From Bacteroidales bacterium (GTDB lineage: Bacteria; Bacteroidota; Bacteroidia; Bacteroidales; WCHB1-69): a stretch of DNA of 64,000 nucleotides. The notes below the pieces were generated by a model. The model did not search any database, had not been told where the DNA came from, and worked only from the letters and a program-made list of their open reading frames with translations. Below, in pieces: positions 21,837-61,831 of this stretch. The stretch lies in contig JBGUPJ010000036.1 in the NCBI GenBank assembly GCA_045130235.1, positions 24,142 to 88,141 of the forward strand, in the 5' to 3' direction. Numbering within the stretch: position 1 is the first letter of the stretch; each line of letters opens with the position of its first letter. The position numbers and the translations under genes are program-made.

Positions 21837-22014
21837 TGAGGAAGGTGCAAGTCATCTGATTGAACTTAAACGTTTGATACAAGAGCATAACAAGAAAGAG
21901 GAACAAGTCCCCCTCCGTGAGCCTGATTTACTTATCATTCTGACAGGCGGACACATGGCATATACCCGGCCCGATGGAGTGAAAATCATACCCTTGGCCA
22001 CGTTGAGACAGTAG
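21814..22014 (+). pseudogene. possible 3' gene remnant (start-less open frame)
   Basis: The open frame has no Met until near its end. It reads ...EEGASHLIELKRLIQEHNKKEEQVPLREPDLLIILTGGHMAYTRPDGVKIIPLATLRQ*. It looks like the C-terminus of a longer protein. Family not recognised. Confidence 0.25.
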
Positions 22015-22074
22015 ATGAAACGAAGGGGGAATGAGAATTGAAAATTAATCCTTTCAAGTCTGATAATAATTCTT

Positions 22075-22082
22075 TATTTTTG
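22075..22082 (+). promoter_or_regulatory. -7 box TATTTTTG for the nucleoside transporter gene
   Basis: 104 nt upstream of the ATG at 22186. The long leader contains TCAAATCTT-type repeats. Confidence 0.45.
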
Positions 22083-22094
22083 CAAGCTGAAATT

Positions 22095-22156
22095 TCAAAT
22101 CTCCCAAGTCTCTCAAATCTTCAAATCTTTCAAATTTTTCAAATCCTCAAATCTTC
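22095..22156 (+). repeat. low-complexity (T)TCAAATCT repeats in a 5' leader
   Basis: TTTCAAATCTCCCAAGTCTCTCAAATCTTCAAATCTTTCAAATTTTTCAAATCCTCAAATCTTCG. The stretch is G-poor, with about 6 units. Confidence 0.8.
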
Positions 22157-22185
22157 GAATTAATAATCCATAATCTTTAATAACC

Positions 22186-23562
22186 ATGAAACTGAAAATC
22201 AGACTGATTGTGATGAACTTCCTGCAGTATGCCGTGTGGGGAGCTTACCTTACTTGTATGGGTAAGTATTTGGGCAAGTGCGGATTAGGTGGCGACATCG
22301 GATTGTTCTATGCCATGCAGGGCATTGTTTCGCTGTTCATGCCCGCCTTGATGGGCATCATTGCCGACCGCTGGATCCAGGCGCAAAAAACGCTCGGAAT
22401 CTGCCATATTTTGGCAGGAGGTGCCATGATTGCCGCTTGTTTCTACGGACTGGCGAATCCCAACCCCAACTTCATTGGGCTGTTCACCCTCTATTCCATC
22501 AGTGTGGCATTTTACATGCCCACCATCGCATTATCCAACTCGGTGGCGTATAATGCGTTGGAGAACGGTGGTTTGGACACCGTGAAAGATTTCCCGCCCA
22601 TCCGCGTGTTTGGTACCATCGGTTTCATCTGCGCCATGTGGCTGGTGGACCTCGTGCATTTCTCCGACAGTTTCTTGGCCTCCTGTCTGTCGAATCCCGC
22701 CGACTTTCTGTGGGCACAGCACGGACCAGATGAAGTCATACAGGCCTCCAACACCCCGTTCCAGTTCATGCTGAGCGGTATTTTGGGCATCCTGTTAGGA
22801 ATTTACGCTTTCACACTGCCGAAATGCGCCATCAACAAAGGAGAAAAGAAAAGTTTTGTGGAAGCTCTTGGTTTGCAAGCCTTTTCACTTTTCAAACAGA
22901 AAAAAATGGCCATCTTCTTCATCTTCTCCATGTTGTTAGGAGCGGCCTTGCAAATCACCAACGGCTTCGCCACCCCGTTCATCTCATCTTTCGCCGCTGA
23001 CCCTGCCTTTGCGGACACCTTCGGCGTGAAATACTCGGTCATCATCTACTCCATCTCACAGATTGCAGAAACCCTCTGCATCCTGCTCATCCCCTTCTTC
23101 CTCAAGCGTTTCGGTATCAAGAAGGTGATGCTGATGGCCATGATTGCATGGTTTTTCCGCTTCGGATTGTTCGGCATCGGCGACACGGGCAGCATGGTAT
23201 GGGCCATCATCCTCTCGATGATCGTATATGGCTTTGCCTTTGACTTTTACAACATCTCCGGCTCCCTGTTTGTGAATCAGGAAACCGACCCGAGCATCCG
23301 CTCGTCGGCACAGGGCTTGTTCATGATGATGACCAACGGCTTCGGCGCCACCATCGGCACGTTAGGCGCGCAGGCCATCGTCAATCGGTTCTGCGCATGG
23401 AACGAGGCGGGACTTCTCGTTAGCATTGACGGCACCGGCGGCTGGCCGGCCGTATGGTTCATCTTCGCCGGCTACTCGCTGGTCGTGGCCATCCTGTTCG
23501 CCATCTTCTTCAAGTACAAACACGAGAGAACGGAAAACGGAAAACGGAAAATTGAAAACTGA
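22186..23562 (+). CDS. MFS nucleoside:H+ symporter family transporter (NupG/XapB-like)
   Basis: MKLKIRLIVMNFLQYAVWGAYLT... N-terminus and 12-TM layout are typical of the family. The last 10 codons (TENGKRKIEN) are encoded by the heptad repeat array. Confidence 0.8.
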   Translation: MKLKIRLIVMNFLQYAVWGAYLTCMGKYLGKCGLGGDIGLFYAMQGIVSLFMPALMGIIADRWIQAQKTLGICHILAGGAMIAACFYGLANPNPNFIGLFTLYSISVAFYMPTIALSNSVAYNALENGGLDTVKDFPPIRVFGTIGFICAMWLVDLVHFSDSFLASCLSNPADFLWAQHGPDEVIQASNTPFQFMLSGILGILLGIYAFTLPKCAINKGEKKSFVEALGLQAFSLFKQKKMAIFFIFSMLLGAALQITNGFATPFISSFAADPAFADTFGVKYSVIIYSISQIAETLCILLIPFFLKRFGIKKVMLMAMIAWFFRFGLFGIGDTGSMVWAIILSMIVYGFAFDFYNISGSLFVNQETDPSIRSSAQGLFMMMTNGFGATIGTLGAQAIVNRFCAWNEAGLLVSIDGTGGWPAVWFIFAGYSLVVAILFAIFFKYKHERTENGKRKIEN

Positions 23563-23703
23563 GAATTGAGAGGTGAGAGGAAGGGAGGAAAGGATGAAGA
23601 GATTAAAGGATGAAAACTTCCCGTTCGCATTTTAGTAGAGACGCGATTCATCGCGTCTCTACAACAACAAACCACCTTCAACAAATAAATAATAAACAAC
23701 CCG
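23531..23703 (+). repeat. modular intergenic element D (heptads, ATG module, palindrome, A/C leader)
   Basis: Heptads CGGAAAA x3, TTGAAAA, CTGAGAA, TTGAGAG, GTGAGAG (23531-23579) span the transporter stop. GGATGAAGAG/GGATGAAAA follow. The palindrome GTAGAGACGCGA-TTCA-TCGCGTCTCTAC lies at 23635-23662. CAACAACAAACC...CAACAAATAAATAATAAACAAC then leads to the ung ATG. Confidence 0.85.
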
Positions 23704-24381: not shown

Positions 24382-24463
24382 ACGAAATTAAAGAACCGGA
24401 AAATGTAGAGACGCAGCATGCTGCGTCTCTACTCTATACTCTTTACTTTTAACTCTTGACTAT
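24382..24463 (+). repeat. modular intergenic element F (palindrome plus low-complexity leader)
   Basis: Perfect 28-bp palindrome GTAGAGACGCAGCATGCTGCGTCTCTAC (24405-24432) followed by the ACTCTT-type repeat leader TCTATACTCTTTACTTTTAACTCTTGAC. Confidence 0.85.
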
Positions 24464-30431: not shown

Positions 30432-31159
30432 TGAAATATGCAATGGTAACGGGAGGCTCGCGCGGCATCGGCCGGGCGTGTTGTCTCCAATTGGCAGAGA
30501 TGGGCTATAACGTGATTATCAACTACGCCCGCAACCAGGAAGCGGCTGAAGAGACGCGCCGCTTGGTGGAGGAGAAGGGCGTGACGGCGGAGCTGATGCC
30601 GTTTGATGTGGCCGACGGCGCCGCGGCCGATGCCGCCGTAACCGCCTGGCAGGAGCAGCATCCCGACGACTATATCGCCATCTTGGTGAACAATGCCGGC
30701 ATCCGTCAGGATACCATGTTAGTATTTATGGAGGACCGCCAGTGGCACGATGTGCTGAACACCACGCTGAACGGCTTTTTCTACATCACCCGTCGGGTGG
30801 TGAAGGACATGCTGACGAAGCGGTGGGGCCGCATCGTGAATGTGGTGTCGCTCTCCGGCATCAAGGGACTGCCCGGACAGGTGAACTACTCGGCGGCGAA
30901 GGCGGCCATCATCGGTGCCACGAAAGCACTGGCGCAGGAGGTGGGACCGCGCAAGGTGACTGTCAACGCAGTAGCCCCCGGCTTCATCGCCACCGACATG
31001 ACGAAAGACCTCGACGAGGCGATGCTGAAGAAGCAGATCCCCTGTGGCCGGTTCGGAAAACCCGAGGAGGTGGCCGCACTGGTGGGCTTCCTTGCCTCCG
31101 ACAACGCCGCCTATATCAACGGCGAGGTGGTGTCGATTAATGGGGGACTGTATACCTAA
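30431..31159 (+). CDS. fabG: 3-oxoacyl-[ACP] reductase (SDR)
   Basis: VTGGSRGIGRA, NNAG and YSAAKAA motifs. The start overlaps the upstream stop (TAATG). Confidence 0.85.
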   Translation: MKYAMVTGGSRGIGRACCLQLAEMGYNVIINYARNQEAAEETRRLVEEKGVTAELMPFDVADGAAADAAVTAWQEQHPDDYIAILVNNAGIRQDTMLVFMEDRQWHDVLNTTLNGFFYITRRVVKDMLTKRWGRIVNVVSLSGIKGLPGQVNYSAAKAAIIGATKALAQEVGPRKVTVNAVAPGFIATDMTKDLDEAMLKKQIPCGRFGKPEEVAALVGFLASDNAAYINGEVVSINGGLYT

Positions 31160-31276
31160 ACTGAAAATTGAAAATTGAAAATTAAGAGGTGAGATGAAAG
31201 GATAAAGAGATTAATGATGCAAATCCCCCTTTCATTTTTAATTGTTAATTATTAATTGTTAATTGTTTATAACATC
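31160..31276 (+). repeat. modular intergenic element E (heptads, ATG module, TTAATTGTTAAT repeats; no palindrome)
   Basis: CTGAAAA TTGAAAA TTGAAAA TTAAGAG GTGAGAT, then GAAAGGATAAAGAG, then TTAATTGTTAATTATTAATTGTTAATTGTT directly before the KAS start. Confidence 0.8.
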
Positions 31277-34266: not shown

Positions 34267-34332
34267 CCGCTCGAAAATCTGTGCGGAGAGCACCCGTTTT
34301 CATCATTTTCATCCAAAATTATCATCAAAAAA

Positions 34333-37622: not shown

Positions 37623-39638
37623 ATGGCAAATTTTGAGGAAAAGAAAATTGCAGAGGAAGACATCCCGCAGGATGTGAAACTTCCGGAAAATGCGTACCGC
37701 GAGCTGAAAGCTGGCGAGGAGTACAGACCCATTTTGGACCCCAACAAGAAGTATCCCGAGCTAAATGCCTGGACTATCGTGTGGGGTATTATCATGGCGG
37801 TGATCTTTTCGGCGGCTACCGCTTACGCTGGACTGAAATTCGGCCAAGTATTTGAGGCGGCCATCCCCATCTCCATCATCGCGGTCGGTGCGTCGGTCAT
37901 CGCACGGCGCAAAGGAGCCCTGTCGGAGAATGTGCTGATACAGTCTATCGGCGCCAGCTCGGGCGTGGTGGTGGCCGGTGCCATCTTCACCCTGCCCGCC
38001 ATCTACATCATCCAAGCCAAGAATCCTGAAATGGGAATCAACGTGAACTTCTTCCAGATTTTCATCGCATCGCTGGTCGGCGGCTTCCTTGGCATCCTCT
38101 TCCTGATTCCGTTCCGCAAGTATTTCGTTTCCGACATGCATGGCAAATACCCCTTCCCCGAGGCAACTGCCTCCACCGAGATTCTGGTGTCAGGCGCAAA
38201 AGGTGGCAGCCAGCTCAAACTCTTACTTATCAGCGGACTGGTAGGCGGATTATACGACTTCTTCATGTCCACCTTCAAATTCTGGTCAGAGGCCATCTCG
38301 TCTCAAATGACGGGTTGGGGCGAGAAGCTGGCTACCCACTACAAGTTCACCTTCAACATGAGCAGTTCGGCCGTATTATTAGGCACCGGCTACCTGATTG
38401 GCCTCAAGTATGCGGCCATTATCTGCGCAGGTTCATTCCTGTCGTGGTGGGTGATTGTGCCGCTACTCGGGCAGTATGGTGTGACCGCCGACGGCAGCAC
38501 CCTGATGAGCACGATGGCACCTGCTGAAATCTTCTCAAGCCATGTCAAGCTTATTGGCATCGGCGGCATTGCCATGGCGGGCATCCTTGGCGTTATCAAG
38601 TCGGCAGGAGTTATCAAGACTTCTATGGGCACCATCTTCAAGAAAAACAAAGGAGCGACAGCTGAGCAGCAGCAGGTTCTGCGCACCCAGCGCGACATCG
38701 CCATGAAGATCATCCTTTTCGGTTTTCTCGGTCTGGCTGTCGTCATGGCTTTGTTTTTCGCCTTTGGTGGTTTGCACATGAATGTCACCCAAGTGATTGT
38801 TGCCTTGCTCATCGTATTCCTCTTCGCCTTCCTGTTCACCACTGTAGCAGCCACAGCTATTGCCACGGTGGGCAGCAACCCGGTGTCGGGAATGACCCTG
38901 ATGACGCTCATTCTCTCCTCTTTTATTCTGGCTGCAGTAGGCCTGAAGGGACCTATGGGAATGGTCACGGCATTGATTGTGGGCGGAATCGTCTGCTCAG
39001 CGCTGGCCATGGCGGGCGGCTTTATCACCGACTTGAAAATCGGTTACTGGATTGGCACATCGCCCTACAAACAGCAGTCGTTTAAGTTCATCGGCACGCT
39101 GGTGTCGGCCTTGACGGTCGGTGGGGTGATCATGGTGCTGTCGAGAGTTTATGGCTACGATGCCGATAATGGCGGACTGGTGGCTCCGCAGGCCAACGCC
39201 ATGGCCGCCATCGTGCAGCCGCTGATGTCGGGACAAGGCACTCCGTGGATTCTTTATATCGTGGGTGCGGTTCTCGCCCTTATTTTGGATATGATTGGCA
39301 TTCCGGCACTAGCTTTCTCGCTGGGTATGTTCATCCCGCTGGCGCTGAACATCCCGTTGCTCATCGGCGGTGCTATCGCCTGGTTGGTGGGCAGCCGCAG
39401 CAAAGATGAAGAGGTCAACAAGGCCCGTAAGAACAAAGGTACGCTGTTAGCCTCCGGCTTGCTGGCGGGTGCGGCCATCATGGGTGTGGTGAGTGCCATC
39501 CTGAAATTCGCAGGCGTGGACATTGCCACTACGCAGGCTTACGCCAACTCCCCGTGGCCGGGCATTATCGCGGTTGTGATGTACGTGGCGCTGTGCGTCT
39601 ATCTGATTCTGCATTCGCTCCAGCGCGAGAAAGAATAA
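37623..39638 (+). CDS. OPT-family oligopeptide transporter
   Basis: 671 aa with about 16 TM segments. The N-terminal region (PELNAWTIVWGIIMAVIFSAATAYAGLKFG) and overall layout are typical of bacterial OPT proteins. Confidence 0.8.
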   Translation: MANFEEKKIAEEDIPQDVKLPENAYRELKAGEEYRPILDPNKKYPELNAWTIVWGIIMAVIFSAATAYAGLKFGQVFEAAIPISIIAVGASVIARRKGALSENVLIQSIGASSGVVVAGAIFTLPAIYIIQAKNPEMGINVNFFQIFIASLVGGFLGILFLIPFRKYFVSDMHGKYPFPEATASTEILVSGAKGGSQLKLLLISGLVGGLYDFFMSTFKFWSEAISSQMTGWGEKLATHYKFTFNMSSSAVLLGTGYLIGLKYAAIICAGSFLSWWVIVPLLGQYGVTADGSTLMSTMAPAEIFSSHVKLIGIGGIAMAGILGVIKSAGVIKTSMGTIFKKNKGATAEQQQVLRTQRDIAMKIILFGFLGLAVVMALFFAFGGLHMNVTQVIVALLIVFLFAFLFTTVAATAIATVGSNPVSGMTLMTLILSSFILAAVGLKGPMGMVTALIVGGIVCSALAMAGGFITDLKIGYWIGTSPYKQQSFKFIGTLVSALTVGGVIMVLSRVYGYDADNGGLVAPQANAMAAIVQPLMSGQGTPWILYIVGAVLALILDMIGIPALAFSLGMFIPLALNIPLLIGGAIAWLVGSRSKDEEVNKARKNKGTLLASGLLAGAAIMGVVSAILKFAGVDIATTQAYANSPWPGIIAVVMYVALCVYLILHSLQREKE

Positions 39639-39640
39639 CC

Positions 39641-39811
39641 TTAGAAATCCTTCATGTTGTGATCCACACGCAGGTCTTCTTCCAGCTGCCAGAGCTGGAA
39701 GGCGGCCTGGCGTTCCATGTAGGTCAGGATATCGGCCTTCGCGGTGAGGTCGTTGATTTTGCAGATTTCCTCTAAAATCTCGTCGATTCGCACTTTGATA
39801 TTGTTATCCAT
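39641..39811 (-). CDS. small hypothetical protein (56 aa), missed by the ORF track
   Basis: MDNNIKVRIDEILEEICKINDLTAKADILTYMERQAAFQLWQLEEDLRVDHNMKDF*. Third positions are GC-rich. A perfect minus-strand -7 box lies 24 nt upstream. The overlapping plus-strand track ORF 39554-39775 has no such support. Confidence 0.5.
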   Translation of the reverse strand: MDNNIKVRIDEILEEICKINDLTAKADILTYMERQAAFQLWQLEEDLRVDHNMKDF

Positions 39812-39834
39812 GATGTCGTCTTTTTTTGGTGCGG

Positions 39835-39842
39835 CAAAGGTA
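39835..39842 (-). promoter_or_regulatory. -7 box TACCTTTG for the 56-aa ORF
   Basis: Reverse complement of CAAAGGTA, 24 nt upstream of the ATG at 39811. Confidence 0.45.
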
Positions 39843-39888
39843 CGGGATTTTTTTCAAAAAAAATTTCCCACCTCTTCAATTTTAGTTG

Positions 39889-39896
39889 TATTTTTG
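39889..39896 (+). promoter_or_regulatory. -7 box TATTTTTG for glnS
   Basis: 28 nt upstream of the ATG at 39924. Confidence 0.5.
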
Positions 39897-39923
39897 CACT
39901 TCAAATTCTAAAATTATAAGGCA

Positions 39924-41549
39924 ATGAATTTTATTGAAGAAATTATCGAACAAGATTTGGCTAATGGTAAAAATGAATCGAAAGTACACACTCGTTTTCC
40001 TCCCGAACCGAACGGCTATCTCCATATCGGTCACGCCAAGTCGATTTGCTTGAATTTCGGCATTGCCAAGAAATACAACGGATTGTGCAACCTGCGCTTC
40101 GACGACACCAACCCCGTGAAGGAGGATGTGGAGTACGTGGATTCCATCAAGGAGGATATCCAGTGGCTCGGCTTCCAGTGGGCTGAGGAGCACTACGCCT
40201 CCGACTACTTCGACCAGCTCTACGAGTGGGCCGAGCAGCTGATCAAGGAAGGCCTCGCCTATGTGGACGACCAGTCGCAGGAGGAGATCAGCGCGGGACG
40301 CGGCGTGCCCACCCAACCCGGCACCGAAAGTCCGTACCGCAACCGCAGCGTGGAGGAGAACCTCGACCTCTTCCGCCGCATGAAGGCCGGTGAGTTTCCC
40401 GACGGCAGCAAGGTGCTGCGCGCCAAAATCGGCATGACCTCACCCAACATGCACATGCGCGACCCCATCATGTACCGCATCCTGCACAGCCATCACCACC
40501 GCACCGGCGACAAGTGGTGCATCTACCCGATGTACGACTACGCCCACGGCCAGAGCGACTCCATCGAGGGCATCACCCATTCCATCTGCACCTTGGAGTT
40601 TGAGATCCACCGTCCGCTGTACGACTGGTTCTGCGAGGCGCTGAAGATCCACCACCCGCAGCAAATCGAGTTCGCCCGCCTCAACATCAACTACACGGTG
40701 ATGAGCAAGCGCAAGCTGATGCAGCTGGTGCGCGACGGTCATGTGATGGGCTGGGACGATCCGCGTATGCCCACCATCTGCGGTTTGCGCCGCCGCGGCT
40801 ACACCCCCGCCTCGGTGCGCAACTTCGCCGAGACCGTCGGCATTGCCAAGCGCGACAACATCATCGACGTGTCGCTGCTGGAGTTCTGCGCCCGCGAGGA
40901 CCTCAACAAGGTGGCCACCCGCACCATGGCGGTGCTCGACCCCGTGAAGTTGGTTATCGACAACTTCCCGGACGATAAGGTGGAGATGCTCAACGCGGTC
41001 AACAACCCCGAAAATCCGGAGGCGGGTACCCGCGAGGTGCCGTTCACCAAGGAGCTTTGGATCGAGCGGGCCGACTTCCGCGAGGTGGCCGACAAGAAGT
41101 TCTACCGCCTCACCATCGGCGGCGAGGTGCGCCTCAAATACGGCTATATCGTTAAATGCAGCCATGTGGACAAGGATGCCGACGGCAACATCACCGCCAT
41201 CCATGTTACCTACGACCCCGAGACCAGGAGCGGCATGCCGCAGAGCAATCGCAAGGTGAAAGCCACCATCCACTGGGTGTCGGTGGCCCACGCCAAGAAG
41301 GCGGAGGTGCGCCTGTTCGAGCGCCTGTTCACCTCCCCCGATCCCGACGACTGCGAAGAGGGCAAGACCTTCATCGATTACCTCAACCCCAACTCGCTCA
41401 CCATCCAGGACGGCTGGATTGAGGAGGGTCTGACATTGGAGAACGCCGAGAAGCACTACCAGTTCGAGCGCATCGGCTATTTCTGCATCGACAAAGATTC
41501 CACCCCCGACAAGATTGTGTTCAACAAGACGGTGAGTTTGAAACAGTAA
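39924..41549 (+). CDS. glnS: glutamine--tRNA ligase
   Basis: [16 protein letters not shown] (HIGH motif), VMSKRKL (KMSKS motif), and the class I GlxRS core and anticodon-binding domain. Confidence 0.95.
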
Positions 41550-41762
41550 TTGAAAACTGAGAATTGAAAACTGAGAATTGAAAACTGAAAGGTGGTGGAT
41601 TTTCTCGGATTTTCAGTACCTTTGCACGTGGAAATTGGAGGAGGGGATGAAAAGATGAAAAGATGAAAAGATGAAGGGATGAAATGTGTGGGTGTAGAGA
41701 CGTTGCGCGCAACGTCTCTACCTTCAACAAATAAACAAATCAACGAATCAACACCCCAAACC
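41550..41762 (+). repeat. modular intergenic element A (archetype)
   Basis: (TTGAAAACTGAGAA)x3 heptad pairs run from 41550 to ~41591. The -7 box TACCTTTG is at 41617-41624. GATGAAAA octamers place ATGs at 41647, 41655, 41663, 41671 and 41679. A perfect 28-bp palindrome GTAGAGACGTTGCGCGCAACGTCTCTAC lies at 41694-41721. The CAACAAATAAACAAATCAACGAATCAAC leader follows. About 200 bp is homologous to 45164-45390. Confidence 0.9.
41617..41624 (+). promoter_or_regulatory. -7 box TACCTTTG embedded in element A
   Basis: TAnnTTTG match. The predicted ~130-nt leader would contain the ATG octamers, the palindrome and the CAACAAAT repeats. Confidence 0.4.
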
Positions 41763-42809
41763 ATGAAAACAAGAAAAATTTACCAACCCTTATTTCTCCT
41801 CGCGCTGCTGGTAGCGGCGGGGGGATTCGGACAGCAGGCGAAGGCGCAGGAGGACAGTTACCATCCTTTCGCCGACAACGCAGTATGGTCAAACAAGAAC
41901 ATTAAGTATGCCACTTCTGGGGATACTACCATTTGTGGGAAAAATTACCTGAAGGTGTACCGGCAGAAAGAAGACCATCCTTTTGACTTTGATGTGGAAC
42001 AGGCCGAATATTTCTGCGCCATCCGCAACGACACCGCTGCACAAAGGGTATATGGGGTGTACCGGAATCCATTAATTGTATATAAGTATGTTTCAAGCAC
42101 ATATCCATTTTATGCCATTGTGGATACCACATCTGACTCCACTGAATTTCTCTTGTATGATTTCAGTCTGACCGCAGATGACACGGTGGAGGTTGCCTCC
42201 TTCGAGGAATATTTCTACGAATACGATGCGCCAGGAATATATGTGTATGAGGTTTCTCTCCACCAGCAGGCTTCGTTTGTCACCCTCAGCGACAGCAGTA
42301 CAAGAAAGGTATTGGAAGTGGAACTCCTCCATTGGATTTCACCAGATTCATACGTTGACAACATATTGGAGTGGGTGGAACAGATTGGAAATACGGAAGG
42401 CACCTTCACGGTTGGGAAAGGCTGGTTGGAAGGAATATACGAAGGCCCGCACCTGACCTTGTTATGCTATGAGCAGGATGGGGAGCTGCTGTTCTCAAGA
42501 CCATGGGTGGACGCGGACTTGAACTATGACTGTTTCAATAACTCAGGCATAGAAGATGAAGACTTTTTTGCCGGCAATATCTATCCGAATCCCACGAGCG
42601 GAAAGGTCACCATCTCTCTGCCGGAACCGTGGGGAGAAAGAGTTTCGCAAGTTGCTGTTTACAATGCCAATGGGCAGCGGGTGCTTGCAAGGTCTTTTGA
42701 AACACAGCAATTAGAAATCAATCTGCATGACCTTCCCAACGGCATGTATATCATGCAAATCATTGGTGACAACAAGCGGGCTATCAGTAAGAAAATAATT
42801 AAACAGTAG
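41763..42809 (+). CDS. secreted protein with a T9SS type A C-terminal sorting domain (cargo 1 of 3)
   Basis: Start trimmed to the signal peptide MKTRKIYQPLFLLALLVAAGGFGQQAKAQ. C-terminus reads IYPNPTSGKVTISL...VYNANGQRV...LPNGMYIMQI...KKIIKQ. Confidence 0.8.
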   Translation: MKTRKIYQPLFLLALLVAAGGFGQQAKAQEDSYHPFADNAVWSNKNIKYATSGDTTICGKNYLKVYRQKEDHPFDFDVEQAEYFCAIRNDTAAQRVYGVYRNPLIVYKYVSSTYPFYAIVDTTSDSTEFLLYDFSLTADDTVEVASFEEYFYEYDAPGIYVYEVSLHQQASFVTLSDSSTRKVLEVELLHWISPDSYVDNILEWVEQIGNTEGTFTVGKGWLEGIYEGPHLTLLCYEQDGELLFSRPWVDADLNYDCFNNSGIEDEDFFAGNIYPNPTSGKVTISLPEPWGERVSQVAVYNANGQRVLARSFETQQLEINLHDLPNGMYIMQIIGDNKRAISKKIIKQ

Positions 42810-42972
42810 ATGGTTATGAGCTGAAATTTGAAAACGGAAAATTGAAAATTGAGAGGTTGGATTATTCATGGGAATTGTATTACATTTGCTGGCGAAAAAC
42901 GTACGGGCGAATAATGATTCGCCCCTCCAACCAAACAAATCAACAAATAAACAAATCAACAACCATACCACC
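42810..42972 (+). repeat. modular intergenic element C
   Basis: Heptads CTGAAAT TTGAAAA CGGAAAA TTGAAAA TTGAGAG. The -7 box TACATTTG is at 42881-42888. The hairpin GGGCGAAT-AATG-ATTCGCCC is at 42905-42924. The leader is CAAACAAATCAACAAATAAACAAATCAACAACC. Confidence 0.85.
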
Positions 42973-44103
42973 ATGAAAATACAAACCCCATTCAAAACCC
43001 TCCTTCTCCTCGCCCTGCTGGTAGCGGCGGGGGGCTTCAGCCAGCAAGCGATGGCGCAGGAGGACACCTGCATTGTGAATGTTGTCCGCACCTACATGAA
43101 CGGGCGGCAGATACCATGGGACAGCGTACAAGTGCGTGTAAACCTCGTCAATCCGAGTTTCTTTATGATGTATCCACCTGACACTATACTTGCCAATTGT
43201 CCCACAGGCATTCATGAAGACATTCCATCTACGGGTTTCTCTTTATCGCAGAGCTATCCCAATCCCTGTGAGGGTGAGTGCCAGATGAAGCTGACAACTT
43301 GTACGGCAGGGAATGTGCATCTGCAGATCATGGACATGCAGGGACGTTTGTGCTGCCAGCGGACTGAGTCGTTGCCAGCGGGCGAGCACCAGCTGTCGGT
43401 GACGCTTCCTCACAGCGGCGTTTACTTCGTGCAGGCCGAGACAAGCGGCGGCCGCGAGGTAAGCAAGGTGCTGTGCACGGAAGGTAGAGGCAGTGGTTTT
43501 AACATCCGGGTGGCATCCACCTCACCCCAGCTTGTGGAGAAGGCCGAGCGGGGCGGAGAAGGACTGTTCAATGGAGGGGCTTTAATGTGGATTACTGCCT
43601 ATATCACGTATGAGGGAAGGGTGATGAAAAAGACGGAGCAGGTGAACTATTACATTGCAGACAAGTTGTATTCCTATGGTTCTGTCAACATCTTTTTTTC
43701 AGAGAGCGGGAATTGTGACACATTCTCGCTTGCGGGGAAATCCTTTACGGTCGTCTCCGCTCCACTCACCTTGCCGACTATGGATCACCCCATCACGTAT
43801 CGTGTAACCTTTGGTGATTCCACGTTCTATTCAGAACCGACAGAACTCGCACCCTATTCATCCCCCTCATGGTCATTTAGCGGCGAATACAAATATCGTT
43901 ATTATCCTGAAGACTTGGGCGGATGTATTTGCATTGGGGACATCAATGAAGAGATGCCGTCTGAAAACCTTCCGTATTATGTGGTGACGCCCAATTATTG
44001 GATAAGAAAACTTGAAATCATTTCTTGTGATGATTTTAAGATTTTACGATATGATTACGATTGGACGGAACGAAAGAATGAGTATTTTTTGAAAGAAGAA
44101 TAA
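42973..44103 (+). CDS. secreted protein with an internal T9SS type A sorting-domain-like segment (cargo 2 of 3)
   Basis: The signal peptide MKIQTPFKTLLLLALLVAAGGFSQQAMAQ is nearly identical to that of cargo 1. Residues ~89-168 (nt 43237-43476) read LSQSYPNPCEGECQMKL...IMDMQGRL...GEHQLSVTLPHSGVYFVQAETSGGREVSKVL, a typical sorting-domain pattern. About 205 further residues follow it. Confidence 0.7.
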   Translation: MKIQTPFKTLLLLALLVAAGGFSQQAMAQEDTCIVNVVRTYMNGRQIPWDSVQVRVNLVNPSFFMMYPPDTILANCPTGIHEDIPSTGFSLSQSYPNPCEGECQMKLTTCTAGNVHLQIMDMQGRLCCQRTESLPAGEHQLSVTLPHSGVYFVQAETSGGREVSKVLCTEGRGSGFNIRVASTSPQLVEKAERGGEGLFNGGALMWITAYITYEGRVMKKTEQVNYYIADKLYSYGSVNIFFSESGNCDTFSLAGKSFTVVSAPLTLPTMDHPITYRVTFGDSTFYSEPTELAPYSSPSWSFSGEYKYRYYPEDLGGCICIGDINEEMPSENLPYYVVTPNYWIRKLEIISCDDFKILRYDYDWTERKNEYFLKEE

Positions 44104-44113
44104 TCCCAAAACC

Positions 44114-45163
44114 ATGAAAACCATGAAGACAAACCCAATCATTAAAATTGCAACCCTTGCTCTATTGCTTATTGCAGGAGCGGGTATATTTCAGGCAAAG
44201 GCACAGTATCAGTCGTTCTTTGGCGACAGCCTCACAATATATAACGTACAAGGTATGGGAGTTAGCAAAGGCACATCGACTGATGACATTGAATTGATTC
44301 CTGGCAATACGTATGAGTATGGGCTTTTCACAAGAGACACTGTCAATATCAATGGACATCGCTATTACCGATTTTATAGTGAACATTGGGAATACTTGCG
44401 TGAAGACACTGCCACAGGTAGAATTTATAGATATAGTCCTGATGATGAGGAAGAGATTCTGACTTGCGACATGTCGCTATCCGTGGGAGATACCTTCTGG
44501 ATGCCTTTTGATAAATCATATTATTATGACAGTCGGCCCGTTCCCATTGTGGTGGATACAATTTACTTTGTCAATGGATTGAAGACCATTCAATTCAGAA
44601 CAATCTATGAGTGTGGGAGTATGTGGAGTGATGACCCGACGCCTTGTCCCACTCTTTTTGGGGTAGAGGTACATCATCACCCTATTATTTTTGTAGAGGG
44701 GATAGGTCCCAATTTTTCTCCGTTCGGGTGGCTGAATGATGCATTTGAGGAGTGCAATGGAAGCTGTTTCACAGGAGAACAGGAACTTCATTGTGGCTAT
44801 GGACACTGGAATCCTTTCTTATTGTGTGTGTACAAAGACCGTGAGTTAGTTTTTATGTCGGATGCACAGATTGGCTGCTGGCAGGATAACAATATTTCCA
44901 TACAAGAAAACCAGCCTTTGCCATTTTCCATTTACCCCAACCCCACCACCCATACCCTGACGGTGGAAACCGCCAGCCCCATCCGCGAAATCACCGTGTA
45001 CGACCTTGCCGGACGGGTGATGATGACGGCGGAGGGCGGAACGGTAGAGACGTGCCATGGCGCGTCTCTACAGGTGGATGTTTCATCCCTGCCCAATGGC
45101 ATCTACCTGCTGCGTGCCGTAACCGACAACGGCGTGGAAACGGGACGGTTTGTGAAGAATTGA
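44114..45163 (+). CDS. secreted protein with a T9SS type A C-terminal sorting domain (cargo 3 of 3)
   Basis: Signal peptide ...IATLALLLIAGAGIFQAKAQ. The N-domain resembles cargo 1 (ING.RYYRFY...LREDTATGRIYRY versus ICGKNYLKVY...IRNDTAAQRVYGVY). C-terminus reads IYPNPTTHTLTVE...VYDLAGRV...LPNGIYLLRA...GRFVKN. Confidence 0.8.
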   Translation: MKTMKTNPIIKIATLALLLIAGAGIFQAKAQYQSFFGDSLTIYNVQGMGVSKGTSTDDIELIPGNTYEYGLFTRDTVNINGHRYYRFYSEHWEYLREDTATGRIYRYSPDDEEEILTCDMSLSVGDTFWMPFDKSYYYDSRPVPIVVDTIYFVNGLKTIQFRTIYECGSMWSDDPTPCPTLFGVEVHHHPIIFVEGIGPNFSPFGWLNDAFEECNGSCFTGEQELHCGYGHWNPFLLCVYKDRELVFMSDAQIGCWQDNNISIQENQPLPFSIYPNPTTHTLTVETASPIREITVYDLAGRVMMTAEGGTVETCHGASLQVDVSSLPNGIYLLRAVTDNGVETGRFVKN

Positions 45164-45455
45164 AAATTGAGAATTGAAAATTGAAAGGTGGTGGATTTTC
45201 TCGGATTTTCACTATCTTTGCACGCGGGAATGTGAGGAGGGGAGGAGGGGATGAAAAGATGAAAGGATGAAAAGATGAAGGGATGAAATGTGTGGGTGTA
45301 GAGACGTTGCGCGCAACGTCTCTACCTTCAACAAATCAACGCATCAACAAATCAACGCATCAACAAATCAACGAATCAACATTTTTCCCCTCCCCCGTCT
45401 GCAATTCAATTCCTTTTTGTACTTTTGCAAACTGTAAATTGAAAATTATCCCATT
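45164..45455 (+). repeat. modular intergenic element B (homolog of element A plus an extended leader)
   Basis: ATTGARA heptads x4 overlap the cargo-3 stop. The -7 box TATCTTTG is at 45213-45220. Chained ATGs lie at 45251, 45259, 45267, 45275 and 45283. The identical palindrome is at 45298-45325. The leader has (CAACAAATCAACGCAT)x2 plus CAACAAATCAACGAATCAAC. A second -7 box TACTTTTG is at 45420-45427. Confidence 0.9.
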
Positions 45456-45947
45456 ATGAAAAGATTTATTTTCTCCCTCTGTATGATTTGCCTCATAGGA
45501 GGACTGTGCGCACAATGCACCTCCATGGCCCCTTCATCAGACACTCCTCCCGGAAAAGGGAAAGTGAATAAAATCACGCAATCTGAATTTGCCAAGAAAA
45601 TCTTCGATTACAACGATCCGCAAGCCCTCTACCAAGGCAAAAAGCCCATTGTGGTGGACTGCTACGCCGACTGGTGCGGACCGTGCCGCGCCCTCGCCCC
45701 CACCATTGAGGAACTGGCCGCCGAGTATGAAGGAAAAGTCATCTTCTATAAACTGAATGTTGACAATGCTAAAGAATTGTCCAAAGCACTGCAAATCAGA
45801 AATATCCCCACCTTACTCCTCATCAAACCTAACACACCTCCGCAACGTTCTGTCGGATTAGTGGATAAAGCCACTTTGACCAAATCGATCGACGATTTCC
45901 TGCTCGCTCCAACCGATGAGAATGATAATTCTTCTGATAATCAATAA
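45456..45947 (+). CDS. lipoprotein-anchored thioredoxin (WCGPC)
   Basis: Lipobox LIGGLCAQC, and VVDCYADWCGPCRALAP with the thioredoxin fold. Confidence 0.85.
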   Translation: MKRFIFSLCMICLIGGLCAQCTSMAPSSDTPPGKGKVNKITQSEFAKKIFDYNDPQALYQGKKPIVVDCYADWCGPCRALAPTIEELAAEYEGKVIFYKLNVDNAKELSKALQIRNIPTLLLIKPNTPPQRSVGLVDKATLTKSIDDFLLAPTDENDNSSDNQ

Positions 45948-45981
45948 ATTTACCATTTACATTTCACCTGTTTTTTTATTT

Positions 45982-46509
45982 ATGAAAAAATTCTACTTTA
46001 CCATTGCCCTAGCTATTTTGGTTGGATGCCTCTGCATTCAATGCAACTCCTCTCAAACAGAATCTGAACCCGCCAAACCGACCGAACAACCCAAAGAAAC
46101 TAATAGTCAGCCCGACACCACCACCGAAAATACAGACCTGGAAACTATAGTTGTCAACGGCAAAGTGAATCATCTCACCCAAGATGGATTCATAGAAAAC
46201 GTGTTTGATTTCAACGATCCTGTTGCTGTTTATACCGGCAAAACACCCGTTGTGGTGGACTGCTCTGCCGACTGGTGCGTATGGTGCAAAAGGCTGGCTC
46301 CCCATCTTGAGGCATTGGCTGCACAATATGATGGACAAATTATTTTCTATGAGATTGATATGGACCACGCTTCGAAATTAGCGAATGCTATGGAAATTGA
46401 AGGCCTTCCCACTCTTTTGCTCATCAAGCCCAATTCTCGGGCCGAAAAATTAGAAGGTTACATGGAAAAATCTGATTTGGAGAAAGAACTCAAAAAAGCT
46501 TTCTTTTAA
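45982..46509 (+). CDS. lipoprotein-anchored thioredoxin-like protein with a variant WCVWC motif
   Basis: Start trimmed to MKKFYFTIALAILVGCLCIQC. VVDCSADWCVWCKRLAP. Paralog of the upstream gene. Confidence 0.8.
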   Translation: MKKFYFTIALAILVGCLCIQCNSSQTESEPAKPTEQPKETNSQPDTTTENTDLETIVVNGKVNHLTQDGFIENVFDFNDPVAVYTGKTPVVVDCSADWCVWCKRLAPHLEALAAQYDGQIIFYEIDMDHASKLANAMEIEGLPTLLLIKPNSRAEKLEGYMEKSDLEKELKKAFF

Positions 46510-46537
46510 TTCACAGACTTTAGTGTTTGTTGTTGCT

Positions 46538-46568
46538 TGCCCTCCTGCAATGCAAGAGGGCATTTTTA
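46538..46568. terminator. hairpin between convergent thioredoxin and TetR genes
   Basis: TGCCCTC...GAGGGCA stem followed by TTTTTATTT. Confidence 0.5.
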
Positions 46569-47186
46569 TTTCTTCAAACCATTAAAAATCAATGTTTTAA
46601 TCTCTTCTTTCCGATGCGATAAGTACCCCTCCACCTCTTCCTGATTTTGAAGGAACATATCGCTGTACAACGGCAGCGACAGGAAAGTGAACACCACCAA
46701 CGAGATGACATCCAACGTAAGATCCATGGTCTCGATGGGCCGGATGTTGCCCTTCTCCACCTCCTCTTTCACCAGCTGATCCCATGCCGCGTAGTAGTTG
46801 AGGTATTCCATGTTGGTGATGATTTTCATCCGCATGGTCTGCCGGCGCTCTTCGTTCATCACCAGCTCCGTCATGAGGAAGAAGGGCAGTTTGCGGTGGT
46901 GCGAAAGCATGTTGAAGTAGTTGTCTATCAGCTGGGTTAGCGCGTGCCAAAAATCCATTTCCCCCTCTTTTTCGGTGCGGATGAATTGCAGAAGCAGTTG
47001 GAATTTTTTGGTGAAAATCTGTTGGAAAAGATTTTCTTTGGTACGGAAATAGTAGTGTATCAGTGCCTGATTGCAGCCTACCCGTTTGGCGATATCGGTG
47101 GTGGAGGTGGCATCAAACCCGTTTTCCATGAACAGCTCTTCTGCCGTTTGAAGGATTTTTTCCTCTAATTGTGAATTCTTTGACAT
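46566..47186 (-). CDS. TetR/AcrR family transcriptional regulator
   Basis: N-terminal HTH ILQTAEELFMENGFDATSTTDIAKRVGCNQALIHYYFRTKENLF. Confidence 0.88.
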   Translation of the reverse strand: MSKNSQLEEKILQTAEELFMENGFDATSTTDIAKRVGCNQALIHYYFRTKENLFQQIFTKKFQLLLQFIRTEKEGEMDFWHALTQLIDNYFNMLSHHRKLPFFLMTELVMNEERRQTMRMKIITNMEYLNYYAAWDQLVKEEVEKGNIRPIETMDLTLDVISLVVFTFLSLPLYSDMFLQNQEEVEGYLSHRKEEIKTLIFNGLKK

Positions 47187-59289: not shown

Positions 59290-59742
59290 TTATTTCTTGC
59301 GGAAACGTTCGGTGATGTCGTGCCACTCTTCGCCATCGCGCTCGTACAAACGCTGGTTGGTGGTCGGGGCCTTCAAACTGCCGCATTCGGGTTTGTAGGG
59401 ACCGGTCTTCACATAGTCGAACCACTCGGCATGCTTGGGCATCTCGTCGCGGCCAGAGTACCAGCCCACCTTCATGTTTCCTTTGGAATGGATGTGTCCG
59501 GCCAGCTTTTCCACCTCCGGCTTCTCGCCGTCGCCGCCCATCAAACAGATACAGGTAGCCAAGCCCTTGTAGCGGGCCATCAGCAAATCTACCACCTCGG
59601 GAGTGAGCTCCTCGCCTTTGTCCTCCCACAAGTGCGGACTGTGACAGTTCTTGCAGTGGTTGGGACAGTTGGTGATGTTGACAGCGAGGGTGACTTCTCC
59701 GGGAATCTCTTGAAAAACGATGTCGTAATTATAAAACTTCAT
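59290..59742 (-). CDS. nrdG: anaerobic ribonucleoside-triphosphate reductase activating protein
   Basis: Start trimmed to MKFYNYDIVFQEIPGEVTLAVNITNCPNHCKNCHSPHLW (CxxxCxxC). It overlaps the nrdD stop by 14 nt. Confidence 0.85.
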   Translation of the reverse strand: MKFYNYDIVFQEIPGEVTLAVNITNCPNHCKNCHSPHLWEDKGEELTPEVVDLLMARYKGLATCICLMGGDGEKPEVEKLAGHIHSKGNMKVGWYSGRDEMPKHAEWFDYVKTGPYKPECGSLKAPTTNQRLYERDGEEWHDITERFRKK

Positions 59743-61831
59743 GGTTGTTCTTGGCATAATAACGACGATGTTCTTCTTCCTGACGAGCCAGCGAGAAATT
59801 GCTGACACGCTTCATATAGCCGATGACACGAGTCATGTAGTCGATGTCCGTGCTATGGCACACGGGACACTCTTTGAGGTAGCGTTTATCAATATGTCCA
59901 CATTTGTTGCAGATGGTATTCGGGATGTTGAAGGTGAAGTAGTTGCATCCCTCCTGAGCCGCCACACGCAGCAGCTGGCGGTATTGTTCTTTGCTGAGGT
60001 GCTCTTCCAAATTGAGGTGCAGCGCCGAACCGCCGGTGAGGTGCGTGATGTACTTACGACCATGGAGACGGAACTTGTCGAGAATGTTAATCTCTTTATC
60101 TTCAACAATATAGAAATAACTATTATAACAATCGCGGGTCACCACGTAACCGTCTTCGCGGTCCCACTTGGCGTGCTTCACACCCACATTCTCAGCGGGA
60201 ATCATCTCGCAATTGAACATGAGGTCTTTGCTCTTATAGCGTTTGTTGTAATCTTCAATCATTCCCAAGATCTCCTCCACGAAATGCTGATACTTCTCAT
60301 TGTCGTTGATGGGAATCTTGAGGAATTCGGCGGCCTCCACCAGTCCGTTGATACCGATGGTGAGGTACTGGCGGTTGATGGCAATATAGCCGGCGTCGAA
60401 GAGCGGAAGCATTCCCTTTTTCAACAAATACTTAAGGTTCTCATTATAACAGATTTGCACCTTATGGGTCAGGTCCACCATCTGTTCAAGGAACTCCATA
60501 TAGGGGATGTTCTGCTTGCAGGCGTACTGGATGCAGCGGTTGAGGTTGATGGTGAGCACACTCTTGGAGCCGGTGGAGACGCCGCCAGCGCCCAGCGTGT
60601 AGCTGAAGCCATTGTCCTGAATCTCGTTGCGGAGGCGGCAGCAGCTGCTCAATGAGTCGGCGTTGTCGCTGAGGTAGGTGAAGAAGGAGTGCCCTTGGGC
60701 ATACATCTCGGCGGTGAAGTCGCCGTACTCCTGGTCGAGCACGTCGCCGTCTTTCGAGAGCAGCGCCATGGTTTCCACGGGGAAGGTGAGCATGGTGCGG
60801 GTGCGCTCCTTGTTGAACCAACGCATGAACCGTTTCTGGAGCCAGTTGAGAGAATCCCAGTCGGGACGGCTGCCGTCGGGGAAGACGAAGTCGCCGAAGA
60901 GGCTCTGGAAGTAGAACTTGTCGTAGTAGGCGATATTCCAGAACACCGACTGATAGTTACGGGCGCCGGAGGGCTGGTTGATAGAATAGACCACCTGCTG
61001 GAAGCAGTCGGTAATAACCTTATCGATGGTACGTTTTTTGAGGGAGAGGTCCACCACTTCGTCGGCACGCTTGTAGTAGTCGGTGCCGTACTCTTGACCG
61101 ATGAAGTAGTTCATGTACATCAGGAACTCGGGGGTGGCGCAGGCGCCGCTGAGCATGCTGGATACCATGAACACCATGTTGATGAAGCCGCCGCAGAACG
61201 ACTTGAGGTTGGTAGGACGGGAGGCATTGCCGCCGATGCTCTGGGTGCCGCCGAGCAGCCACGGGTACATGGTGATGCTGGCGCAGTAGTTGGCGATGCT
61301 GGTCTCGTCGTTTTTATAGATAAAATGATTGTTGAGATAATAGAGATACTTGTCGGACAGCTCTTTGCCATACACCTCCTTGATGCGGTCGCACAGCATA
61401 CGGCGGTTGAGGCGGATGAAGCCCGACTTAGGAAGCTCGCCGATGAGCGTGGCGATGTTCTTGCGCTCCACGTTGGCGTTGGCGTCGTACTTGCTGCCGG
61501 TGGCCGCATTCTGGGCGTTGCAATAGTTGATGAGGAAATCGAGTTTCTCCTTCACCTCGCGGTCTTCGTAATGCTTCTGGCGGTATAGGATGAATGCCTT
61601 GGCCACCTCGTAGTAGCGCTCAGCCATCAGCGAGCGCTCCACCTGGTTCTGGATTTCCTCTTCATGGATGCCGTCGTAGATGTTGAGGCGGCTGAGGATG
61701 TTAATCATCGACTCCTGGGTGGCAAAGCTCCCTACGGAGATGAAGGCCTTGGTAATGGCGCTTCGGATTTTTTCAATCGAGAACGGCTCCCTCTTTCCGT
61801 CTCGTTTGATAATGTGAACTTCTTCTATCAT
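59729..61831 (-). CDS. nrdD: anaerobic ribonucleoside-triphosphate reductase (class III)
   Basis: Start trimmed to MIEEVHIIKRDGKREPFSIEKIRSAI (ATP-cone). C-terminal Zn-ribbon CNKCGH...CPVCHS and the glycyl-radical region TRVIGYMKRV are present. The track start at 61981 would run through the riboswitch. Confidence 0.92.
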   Translation of the reverse strand: MIEEVHIIKRDGKREPFSIEKIRSAITKAFISVGSFATQESMINILSRLNIYDGIHEEEIQNQVERSLMAERYYEVAKAFILYRQKHYEDREVKEKLDFLINYCNAQNAATGSKYDANANVERKNIATLIGELPKSGFIRLNRRMLCDRIKEVYGKELSDKYLYYLNNHFIYKNDETSIANYCASITMYPWLLGGTQSIGGNASRPTNLKSFCGGFINMVFMVSSMLSGACATPEFLMYMNYFIGQEYGTDYYKRADEVVDLSLKKRTIDKVITDCFQQVVYSINQPSGARNYQSVFWNIAYYDKFYFQSLFGDFVFPDGSRPDWDSLNWLQKRFMRWFNKERTRTMLTFPVETMALLSKDGDVLDQEYGDFTAEMYAQGHSFFTYLSDNADSLSSCCRLRNEIQDNGFSYTLGAGGVSTGSKSVLTINLNRCIQYACKQNIPYMEFLEQMVDLTHKVQICYNENLKYLLKKGMLPLFDAGYIAINRQYLTIGINGLVEAAEFLKIPINDNEKYQHFVEEILGMIEDYNKRYKSKDLMFNCEMIPAENVGVKHAKWDREDGYVVTRDCYNSYFYIVEDKEINILDKFRLHGRKYITHLTGGSALHLNLEEHLSKEQYRQLLRVAAQEGCNYFTFNIPNTICNKCGHIDKRYLKECPVCHSTDIDYMTRVIGYMKRVSNFSLARQEEEHRRYYAKNNHEVL

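Follow-up and report, generated by a model that had tools for sequence, protein, structure and literature searches.

The region described here occupies positions 41,550 to 41,762 of a 64,000-nucleotide stretch of a Bacteroidales bacterium (contig JBGUPJ010000036.1, assembly GCA_045130235.1), referred to below, at its full length, as the window. The source is a ruminant-gut Bacteroidales, and the public runs holding the window sequence are gut and bovine-gut metagenomes. The region, copy A in what follows, extends from the stop codon of the GlnS gene to the start codon of a gene for a protein secreted by the type IX secretion system (T9SS), and is built from the following modules, which apart from the inverted heptads are those claimed in an earlier note on this DNA:

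41550-41591, + strand: C-poor heptad array of TTGAAAA/CTGAGAA units, directly after the GlnS stop TAA at 41547-41549 (sequence, Tandem Repeats Finder (TRF), pattern count)
41599-41616, + strand: two inverted heptads, ATTTTCTC GG ATTTTCAG, giving an AU-rich hairpin with the heptad array (minimum free energy (MFE) -18.7 kcal/mol, z -2.6)
41617-41624, + strand: Bacteroidetes -7 box TACCTTTG, a predicted promoter (TAnnTTTG match)
41630-41685, + strand: C-free purine block, a GGAGG-like run and (GATGAAAA)n octamers, with overlapping ATGA mini open reading frames (ORFs; MKR*)
41694-41721, no strand: 28-bp perfect palindrome GTAGAGACGTTGCGCGCAACGTCTCTAC, that is GTAGAGACG-N10-CGTCTCTAC (pattern count, folding, covariation)
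41722-41762, + strand: G-poor CAACAAAT-type octamer leader, abutting the ATG at 41763 of the T9SS-secreted protein gene

When module counts are compared with those of dinucleotide-preserving shuffles of the window, the repeats are found far above expectation: the heptad pattern has 20 matches (19 on the + strand) for 0.19 expected and the palindrome 6 for 0.00 expected, while the CAACAAAT dimer is found 18 times and the GATGAAAA dimer 14 times, each for 1.0 expected. The arrays are called independently by TRF, and in a MAFFT alignment the copies are collinear, parts of them being truly homologous at unlinked loci. The ordered, repeat-built intergenic regions of the earlier note are thus real, and they do have ordered modules in common and lie in the same orientation as the flanking genes. 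All listed repeat regions are flanked by co-directional + strand genes, and the spacers adjoin a mixture of housekeeping and secreted-function genes (GlnS, three T9SS cargo genes, thioredoxin, nupG, ung, DUF2461, fabG, fabF, an MFS transporter and ridA). T9SS sorting domains are found in several window genes.

The order of the modules was assessed in a clade sample anchored on ung, and not on the repeats, which comprises the window and five loci (158 kb). An array of period 5-10 is present in 23 of the 73 co-directional spacers of this sample, and the mean relative position in the spacer is 0.29 for C-poor arrays and 0.68 for G-poor ones (p=0.0009). A repeat-independent test was made on the 54 spacers of at least 60 nt, using runs of at least 25 nt that are C-free or G-free: both kinds of run are present in 14 of the 54 spacers, and the C-free run comes first in 13 of these 14. 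The module order is a statistically real rule.

The other copies, partial copies and isolated modules in the window are as follows:

45153-45384, + strand: copy A', all five modules, 86-88% identical to 41560-41784; heptads 45153-45186, -7 box 45213-45220, octamers 45234-45289, palindrome 45298-45325, leader octamers 45328-45384
42822-42972, + strand: copy B, no octamers; heptads 42822-42852, -7 box 42881-42888, hairpin GGGCGAATAATGATTCGCCC 42905-42924, G-free leader 42926-42972
23529-23703, + strand: nupG-ung spacer, no promoter box; heptads 23529-23576, purine block 23573-23618, palindrome 23635-23662, G-poor leader 23663-23703
24405-24463, + strand: ung-DUF2461 spacer; palindrome 24405-24432, then a G-poor (CTCTATA)-type leader
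31158-31276, + strand: fabG-fabF spacer, no palindrome; heptads 31158-31185, a purine block homologous to that at 23573, (ATTGTTA)n leader
12877-12930, + strand: MFS-ridA spacer, solely CAACAAAT-type octamers; the array begins in the last MFS codons and includes the MFS stop TAA
22090-22160, + strand: nupG leader, a G-poor array of TCAAATCTT-type 9-mers, downstream of a -7 box at 22075
45044-45071, no strand: palindrome copy inside a coding sequence (gene 44114-45163, T9SS C-terminal sorting domain), read in frame as VETCHGASLQ
6989-7016, no strand: degenerate palindrome with 2 mismatches, in a divergent intergenic region
34296-34332, + strand: leader of a C10 peptidase gene, made of TTTTCATC, the reverse complement of the GATGAAAA octamer; sense strand G-poor

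The earlier note had described a five-module architecture in seven regions. Only the copies at 41550 and 45164 carry all five modules, with one to four missing from each of the others. The -7 box occurs at 41617, 42881 and 45213, but in these three copies only. The GTAGAGACG palindrome, presented as the usual hairpin, is found in four of the seven regions; that at 42810 has GGGCGAATAATGATTCGCCC instead, a different hairpin, and those at 31160 and 12894 have none. The leader at 31160 is (ATTGTTA)n, of the reverse-complement type. Repeats do enter the last codons of the upstream gene at 23531 and 45153, the stop TGA of nupG (23560-23562) lying inside the heptad array, whereas at 12877 the array involved is of CAACAAAT and not of heptads. 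The list of seven regions is also incomplete, as it lacks the palindromes at 45044-45071 (in a coding sequence) and 6989-7016 (degenerate) and the TTTTCATC octamers at 34296-34332.

The nupG leader array at 22090-22160 has a different copy number in a relative (L117; numbers with an L designate loci of other genomes). Upstream of nupG, a 266-nt segment (window 21837-22102; L097:393-657) matches a metagenome-assembled genome (MAG) at 97.4% identity, although the genes on either side of it reach only 83-88%. An open frame, ...LREPDLLIILTGGHMAYTRPDGVKIIPLATLRQ*, closes the segment, which could be what is left of a recently exchanged gene, or else a conserved non-coding RNA. A 30-nt repeat, CAAATGCGAACGCAGTGAGCAACAAATCCG, is present in 1.9 copies at 904-961 and resembles a unit inserted in the ung-DUF2461 spacer of L243 (L243:10770-10850); it may represent another dispersed repeat family in the clade. 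Elsewhere in the window, paralogous LytTR-domain regulators are encoded at 15785-16849 and 17672-18739 (both - strand), the large intergenic regions beside each having the motif GGGTTCACATTTTGGGTGTGAAGGGATAAA in common (~17060 and ~18960), and a promoter-like stretch, AATAATCGTACCTTTGCA, is found at 19045 and 20623, ahead of the adjacent genes 19081-20592 (Schlafen/AlbA_2 domains) and 20651-21157. At the gathering threshold, the single Rfam match in the window is a cobalamin riboswitch, with none at the repeat regions, and a search of 41400-45600 with E up to 1 gives nothing credible. The riboswitch is at 61920-62103 (- strand; 98 bits, RF00174), upstream of the minus-strand gene 59729-61831.

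As a sigma-70 promoter scan is uninformative for Bacteroidetes, the TAnnTTTG box was used instead. Its matches support the promoter-like character that had been attributed to the embedded -7 boxes: intergenic DNA, which is 10% of the window, contains 28 of the 50, most of them 20-100 nt ahead of a start. Those of copies A, B and A' conform to the extended TAnnTTTGC consensus of other genes and look like real promoters, as predicted from their sequence. Copy A' is followed by the thioredoxin gene's own promoter, with a -7 box at 45420.

The C-free heptads are by far not restricted to the window. The heptad junction pattern TGARAAYTGARAAYTGARAGGTG, scanned against one genome per species, is found in at least 118 genome stretches. 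Among the matches listed, to which the following counts on seed arrays also refer, the carriers are mostly ruminant-gut Paludibacteraceae, Prevotella, Alistipes and Bacteroidaceae; Treponema, Riflebacteria, Acidobacteriota, Hymenobacteraceae, Balneolaceae and Limisphaerales MAGs are also represented, as well as a cultured isolate, Xylanibacter brevis ATCC 19188. A long co-oriented ORF has its stop at 60/108 arrays on the sense strand, vs 13/108 on the antisense strand and ~10% of random positions; the reverse complement of the heptad is found in a gene leader in 33/108. Octamers follow the heptad array in only 7/124 cases, all from the clade of the window, and a reverse-complement arm does so in 28/124. 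Arrays that were not used as seeds point in the same direction in the related loci: period 7 is dominant (142/316), and just after stop codons 47/92 of these arrays are C-free and 11/92 G-free. The units are head-to-tail tandems of 7 nt, both by TRF on the window and in non-seed arrays, as in the STRR-like class of heptameric simple sequence repeats (SSRs; 7 nt, range 6-9). The TGARAAY units contain no runs of at least 3 G, and in this they do not fit the G-quadruplex property of the Xanthomonas/Nostoc motif.

A minority of heptad arrays fold with the downstream sequence (26/122 at z below -2 with at least 8 cross pairs), and a T-rich tail follows only 2 of these 26 hairpins; in L083, a canonical stem is followed by a T-run. 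In six loci from Acidobacteriota, Hymenobacteraceae and some Prevotella MAGs (L014, L023, L098, L102, L112 and L118), heptads make both arms of long hairpins right after the stop codon, the hairpin of L014 having an MFE of -46.8 kcal/mol (z -12).

The palindrome behaves differently. GTAGAGACG-N10-CGTCTCTAC is found in at least 120 metagenome contigs, of 29-66% GC. Among the matches listed, the inner decamers are of 77 distinct types, and 85 of 132 copies are perfectly self-complementary, vs ~0.1% by chance. At most 63 of the 132 copies are in a long open frame, well below the coding density of about 90%, so that the palindrome prefers intergenic DNA; it is nevertheless not excluded from genes. 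In the window, five of the six copies are intergenic, a mainly extragenic location like that of the GTAG-tagged repetitive extragenic palindromic (REP) sequences. Tandem arrays are found in only 7 flanks of the 124 environmental copies listed with full flanks, and a modest skew is present, G being more frequent than C to the left and less frequent to the right (Wilcoxon p=0.0002). In relatives, a clade variant, GTGGGGATG...CATCCCCAC, occupies the same position as the GTAGAGACG palindrome. Over nine clade copies, 93% of the stem cells pair and 7 of the 13 pairs are changed on both sides, which none of 500 shuffles reaches. GTAG forms the first four bases of the palindrome and is paired with the terminal CTAC, relatives having a GTGG variant. 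The palindrome is, like REP sequences, short, GC-rich and multi-copy, with complementary stem variants. Its arms contain, at 41694-41721 and in all other copies, an inverted CGTCTC/GAGACG pair, the type IIS recognition sequence of BsmBI and Esp3I. A scan of 30 window proteins and the gene lists of 94 kb from relatives reveal no REP-associated tyrosine transposase (RAYT, a Y1 tyrosine transposase), and a literature search on the exact palindrome returns solely cloning and shRNA oligonucleotides.

Some copies of the palindrome deserve separate mention. A T9SS protein of L043 (4855-6687) contains two in-frame palindrome copies in different frames (PRRDVARNVST and VETCHGASLQ), the former being missing from the window orthologue. 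The motif AGGGATGAAA lies exactly 9 nt from the palindrome in copy A (41675-41693) and, inverted, beside the copy in the coding sequence (45072-45090). Considered as a target motif, AGGGATGAAA-N9 is present in A, in A' and once inverted beside the in-gene copy, and is not found at other palindrome copies. Its presence beside palindromes may be a coincidence with SSLP codons in the sorting domain.

The leaders, finally, are poor in G and in start codons. The share of G in the 30 nt that precede the starts of the window is 9.4%. Leaders built of repeats contain 0-1 G over 40 nt and lack ATG, GTG and TTG there, the leader at 41722-41762 having 1 G and 0 start-like triplets in its last 40 nt. The G-free octamer leaders are an extreme of the genome-wide G depletion before start codons. 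The palindrome is retained in the centroid fold, and pairing between the purine arm and the CA-rich arm is ruled out for the window copies, (GAUGAAAA)n not being complementary to (CAACAAAU)n. A relay by N-terminal extension or upstream ORF was also discarded: the ATG of the last octamer is in frame in copy A and L043 but out of frame at nupG-ung, and the in-frame cases are treated as chance.

Comparison of relatives shows that these spacers are far from stable. The nupG-ung spacer is 16, 23, 86, 114, 141, 163 or 216 nt long in genomes whose Ung proteins are 87-96% identical. L241 and L243 have a plain sequence of 16 or 23 nt there; the length is 86 nt in L239 (heptads, GTAGAGACG palindrome and leader), 114-163 nt in L240 and L097 (purine block and GTGG-type palindrome), 141 nt in the window and 216 nt in L242, where AU-rich complementary arms are present without a GC-rich palindrome. 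In L239, of 96% identical Ung, the fabG-fabF spacer is wholly replaced by a (GAGTTAAG)n array. The number of GATGAAAA units is 3 in L240 vs 1 in L241, and the nupG C-terminus is longer where the TGA heptads are mutated to CGG. Length and sequence thus vary at orthologous loci, as they do in the heptameric SSR class, and a stable element is not supported, orthologous spacers being swapped or empty in close relatives. Each genome nevertheless has one palindrome type at two unlinked loci, and the purine block GAGGTGAGAGGAAGGGAGGAAAGGATGAAGAGATTAAA recurs at the nupG-ung, fabG-fabF and T9SS loci.

The full copies are associated with T9SS genes. The GlnS-thioredoxin spacer is a plain 36-37-nt sequence in L097 and L240, whereas in the window it holds a 3.6-kb insertion of three T9SS genes, flanked by the direct copies A and A', the whole spanning 41550-45400. 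In L043, whose GlnS is 95% identical, the T9SS gene order is permuted. A, A' and the L043 copy, which occupy different positions, share 86-95% identity over ~200 nt; in copy A the homology goes on for ~90 nt of signal-peptide coding sequence, behind which the mature proteins differ. Arrays and palindromes appear to mediate rearrangement of the T9SS cargo genes. The composite is not delimited by terminal inverted repeats, the inverted-repeat search having found only internal palindromes. Nor is the target-site duplication or clean insertion expected of a miniature inverted-repeat transposable element seen where filled and empty orthologous sites are comparable, and neither the scanned window genes nor 94 kb from relatives include a transposase. 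In rumen metagenomes, the modules are covered up to several hundred times as deeply as their flanks and have many different junctions; rumen metatranscriptome contigs end at repeat boundaries, and an RNA contig of a 93% relative spans nupG, the spacer and ung. In practice, these arrays and palindromes break metagenome assemblies and add spurious tails and inserts to predicted proteins.

Although the pattern is non-random, its components are repeat classes that other bacteria are known to have, and together they do not make up a single new mobile element. On balance, we lean towards regarding the regions as composite untranslated spacers, assembled in place from three independent, fast-evolving repeat classes, with an ordinary Bacteroidetes promoter added at sites of new transcript initiation. 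Of these classes, the tandem repeats of 7-8 nt without C (A/G/T) would be placed on the coding strand, at the stop codon or closely behind it; the small REP-like palindrome would be dispersed independently, genes included; and G-free (A/C/T) tandem repeats would occupy the last 40-60 nt ahead of the start codon. The arrays could arise and change via replication slippage and copying between loci, and the near-identical full copies could have been spread by duplication and rearrangement of T9SS genes together with their 5' ends. With a period of 7 or 8 and a TGA in each unit, the C-free arrays would close all three frames. As a three-letter alphabet allows no internal G-C pairs within C-free or G-free sequence, the hairpin of the palindrome would be the only strong structure, and by analogy with REP sequences it probably acts at the RNA level, as a stabiliser, a processing site or an insulator. 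The G-free leader would offer neither AUG, GUG or UUG nor a Shine-Dalgarno (SD)-like run. This could suit the ribosomes of Bacteroidia, which attach to unstructured leaders. Bacteroidia do not use SD sequences for start selection, and their initiation is tuned by low structure, upstream adenines and AUG depletion near starts (PMC6847099).

Several observations weigh against this account. In the broader loci, leader arrays are not preferentially G-free (17 G-free vs 17 C-free of 49), and the purine octamers of L240 and L241 reach right to an ATG; the start-codon-free leader is thus a clade tendency and not a law. The enrichment of stop triplets in the arrays comes mostly from their C-free composition (128/145 observed vs 108.5 expected after shuffling of the unit letters) and is partly circular, ORF ends being set by the stop-bearing arrays; as functional proof it was dropped for both reasons. 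Moreover, homologous purine blocks at four unlinked loci and the single palindrome type of each genome point to some copying mechanism beyond this account. A bolder version, in which the series of C-free repeats, one hairpin and G-free repeats would be a selected spacer grammar of SD-less Bacteroidia, and perhaps of other heptad-bearing lineages, seems a tentative and rather unlikely possibility. If it were true, three-letter arrays would be a way to make frame-closing, structure-free and start-codon-free untranslated regions, slippage in the arrays would continuously retune the coupling of neighbour genes and downstream translation, and the long-unexplained excess of heptameric repeats in bacteria would find a concrete function.

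The earlier note had seen in these regions one mosaic element acting as a unit. An element of this kind would copy stop region, promoter, hairpin and leader together to new intergenic sites and lose modules later, which could explain the near-identity of A, A' and the L043 copy at different positions, the recurrence of the GAGGTGAGAGGAAGGGAGGAAAGGATGAAGAGATTAAA block, the palindrome type proper to each genome and the ~3-20 module copies suggested by the depth of the source sample. The modules are found alone, however, with different taxonomic ranges; the composite has no terminal inverted repeats and leaves no target duplications at comparable filled and empty sites; orthologous sites differ in repeat units and not in the presence or absence of one sequence; no transposase turns up among the scanned genes of the window or in the 94 kb from relatives; and rearrangement of T9SS genes with shared 5' coding sequence accounts for the full copies. 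The proposed unit is thus not supported, the reading of the earlier note as a whole being only partly so, and we consider a single mobile element clearly unlikely. A neutral origin is rather unlikely in our estimation. The arrays would be slippage-prone low-complexity DNA accumulating where tolerated, their strand bias a transcription-linked mutation asymmetry and the hairpin selfish DNA. The extremely fast turnover, up to full replacement in close relatives, some of which do with 16-23-nt spacers, fits this, and for analogous heptamers polymerase slippage was held responsible for the over-representation and no function was found (PMC4692102). But a switch from C-free to G-free within a transcription unit (13/14) is unlike a single strand-wide mutation bias, stem pairing in the palindrome survives two-sided changes, and the same positional rule is found in distant phyla (including those of PMC4692102).

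Two further possibilities give the repeats a regulatory role. Slippage of 7-8-nt units in a 5' untranslated region (UTR) could tune or switch the expression of secreted or surface proteins, as a rheostat or contingency locus of the kind documented for hmw1A (PMC12721329). In copies A and B, arrays and a strong hairpin do separate the predicted promoter from the T9SS cargo start, and copy number varies among copies and close relatives; the same modules, however, occupy the promoterless housekeeping spacers fabG-fabF, nupG-ung and MFS-ridA, and the arrays of the window copies have no partner arm, which makes this quite improbable. That the heptad arrays would be the 5' arm of a hairpin with an A-tract, ending the upstream transcript as terminators or attenuators right after the stop codon, is very improbable. 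It would agree with the 28/124 arrays followed by a reverse-complement arm, with the 26/122 that fold downstream, with the canonical stem and T-run of L083 and with the pairing of the copy A heptads with ATTTTCTCGGATTTTCAG. Against it, the partner arm is absent from most arrays, T-rich tails follow only 2 of 26 significant hairpins, and the GTAGAGACG palindromes have no + strand T-runs as an intrinsic terminator would. In a scan of 39000-46600 only the hairpin of copy B is terminator-like among these elements, and on the minus strand; the RNA contig crossing nupG-spacer-ung also speaks against termination there. Integron-like cassettes are ruled out, the same modules being present in housekeeping operons without recombination-site architecture.

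Modular intergenic repeats are known as BOX in Streptococcus pneumoniae and as Correia elements in Neisseria, with promoter-like sequences, RNA hairpins and possible effects on neighbour genes. These are discrete insertions, delimited by fixed end modules or by terminal inverted repeats, whereas the spacers described here have no defined ends and their modules occur independently. The omega leader of tobacco mosaic virus is unstructured, G-poor and CAA-rich, with short direct repeats, and initiation on it is SD-independent. Its putative likeness to the G-free leaders would be functional only, the context being viral and eukaryotic and without evolutionary relation. The Rickettsia palindromic elements (RPE) are palindromic repeats of 100-150 bp inserted in frame in genes that stay open. 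The in-frame palindromes of T9SS proteins (VETCHGASLQ, PRRDVARNVST) are reminiscent of these RPE (mentioned in PMC3733652), but the insert is ~30 nt here and its sequence unrelated. In Haemophilus influenzae, the 5' UTR of hmw1A contains (ATCTTTC)n repeats and an RNase III hairpin, forming a proven phase-variable switch (PMC12721329). As in copies A and B, whose 5' UTR is predicted, 7-nt repeats of variable number lie beside a strong hairpin upstream of a secreted or surface protein gene (PMC12721329); the hmw1A repeats, however, form one hairpin arm, while the arrays described here flank an independent palindrome and are also found in housekeeping operons.

The palindrome comes closest to the GTAG-tagged REP sequences and the bacterial interspersed mosaic elements (BIMEs) that they form (PMC3733652): it is GC-rich, of 20-40 bp, begins with GTAG and reaches a high copy number, its subfamilies keep pairing by complementary changes, and it lies mostly downstream of coding regions between co-directional genes, with some copies intragenic. 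Unlike in these (PMC3733652), GTAG can pair with CTAC and would then not be an unpaired tag, and copies are single, without head-to-head dimers or alternating Y/Z units with linkers. In place of a BIME, each spacer has one palindrome whose flanks are tandem repeats, and, in a further difference from the GTAG-tagged REP, no RAYT transposase is found among the window proteins scanned or the listed genes of relatives. GTAG families were not reported from Bacteroidetes in the survey of PMC3733652.

The heptads, for their part, join the heptameric SSRs described in Xanthomonas (GGGAATC) and Nostoc (GGGGA(C/T)T), with the heptanucleotides of Calothrix cited there (PMC4692102). On the coding strand such repeats lie 0-50 bp from stops, and on the non-coding strand they precede ORFs; they are over-represented in bacteria without any function having been found (PMC4692102). 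Both sets are tandem 7-nt repeats, mostly intergenic and mostly between co-directional genes, placed beside genes of all functional classes and varying between close relatives, and the stop-proximal coding-strand rule of PMC4692102 is found again here (60/108 vs 13/108). They differ from those of PMC4692102 in that the units are A-rich and C-free (TGARAAY), without G-runs, so that a G-quadruplex is inapplicable, and in that they stand in a fixed order with a palindrome and a G-free array, in an SD-less Bacteroidales host. Neither the composite nor these repeats in Bacteroidales turned up in our literature search, which also retrieved papers mentioning cyanobacterial STRRs; the statement of the earlier note that no equivalent is described nevertheless goes too far, as coding-strand heptameric repeats by stops (PMC4692102) and tagged palindromic repeats (PMC3733652) are described from other phyla. 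The stop-proximal rule of heptamers and REP-like palindromes were thus known before, and what is particular here is their fixed order with a G-free array in SD-less Bacteroidales. This lineage shows the heptamer rule cleanly, C-free after the stop and G-free before the start (13/14), and the SD-independent choice of starts (PMC6847099) makes the link between repeat composition and translation directly testable in Bacteroidia. The main value of these regions is that they make the function of heptameric repeats, described in Xanthomonas and Nostoc, testable in an SD-less phylum.

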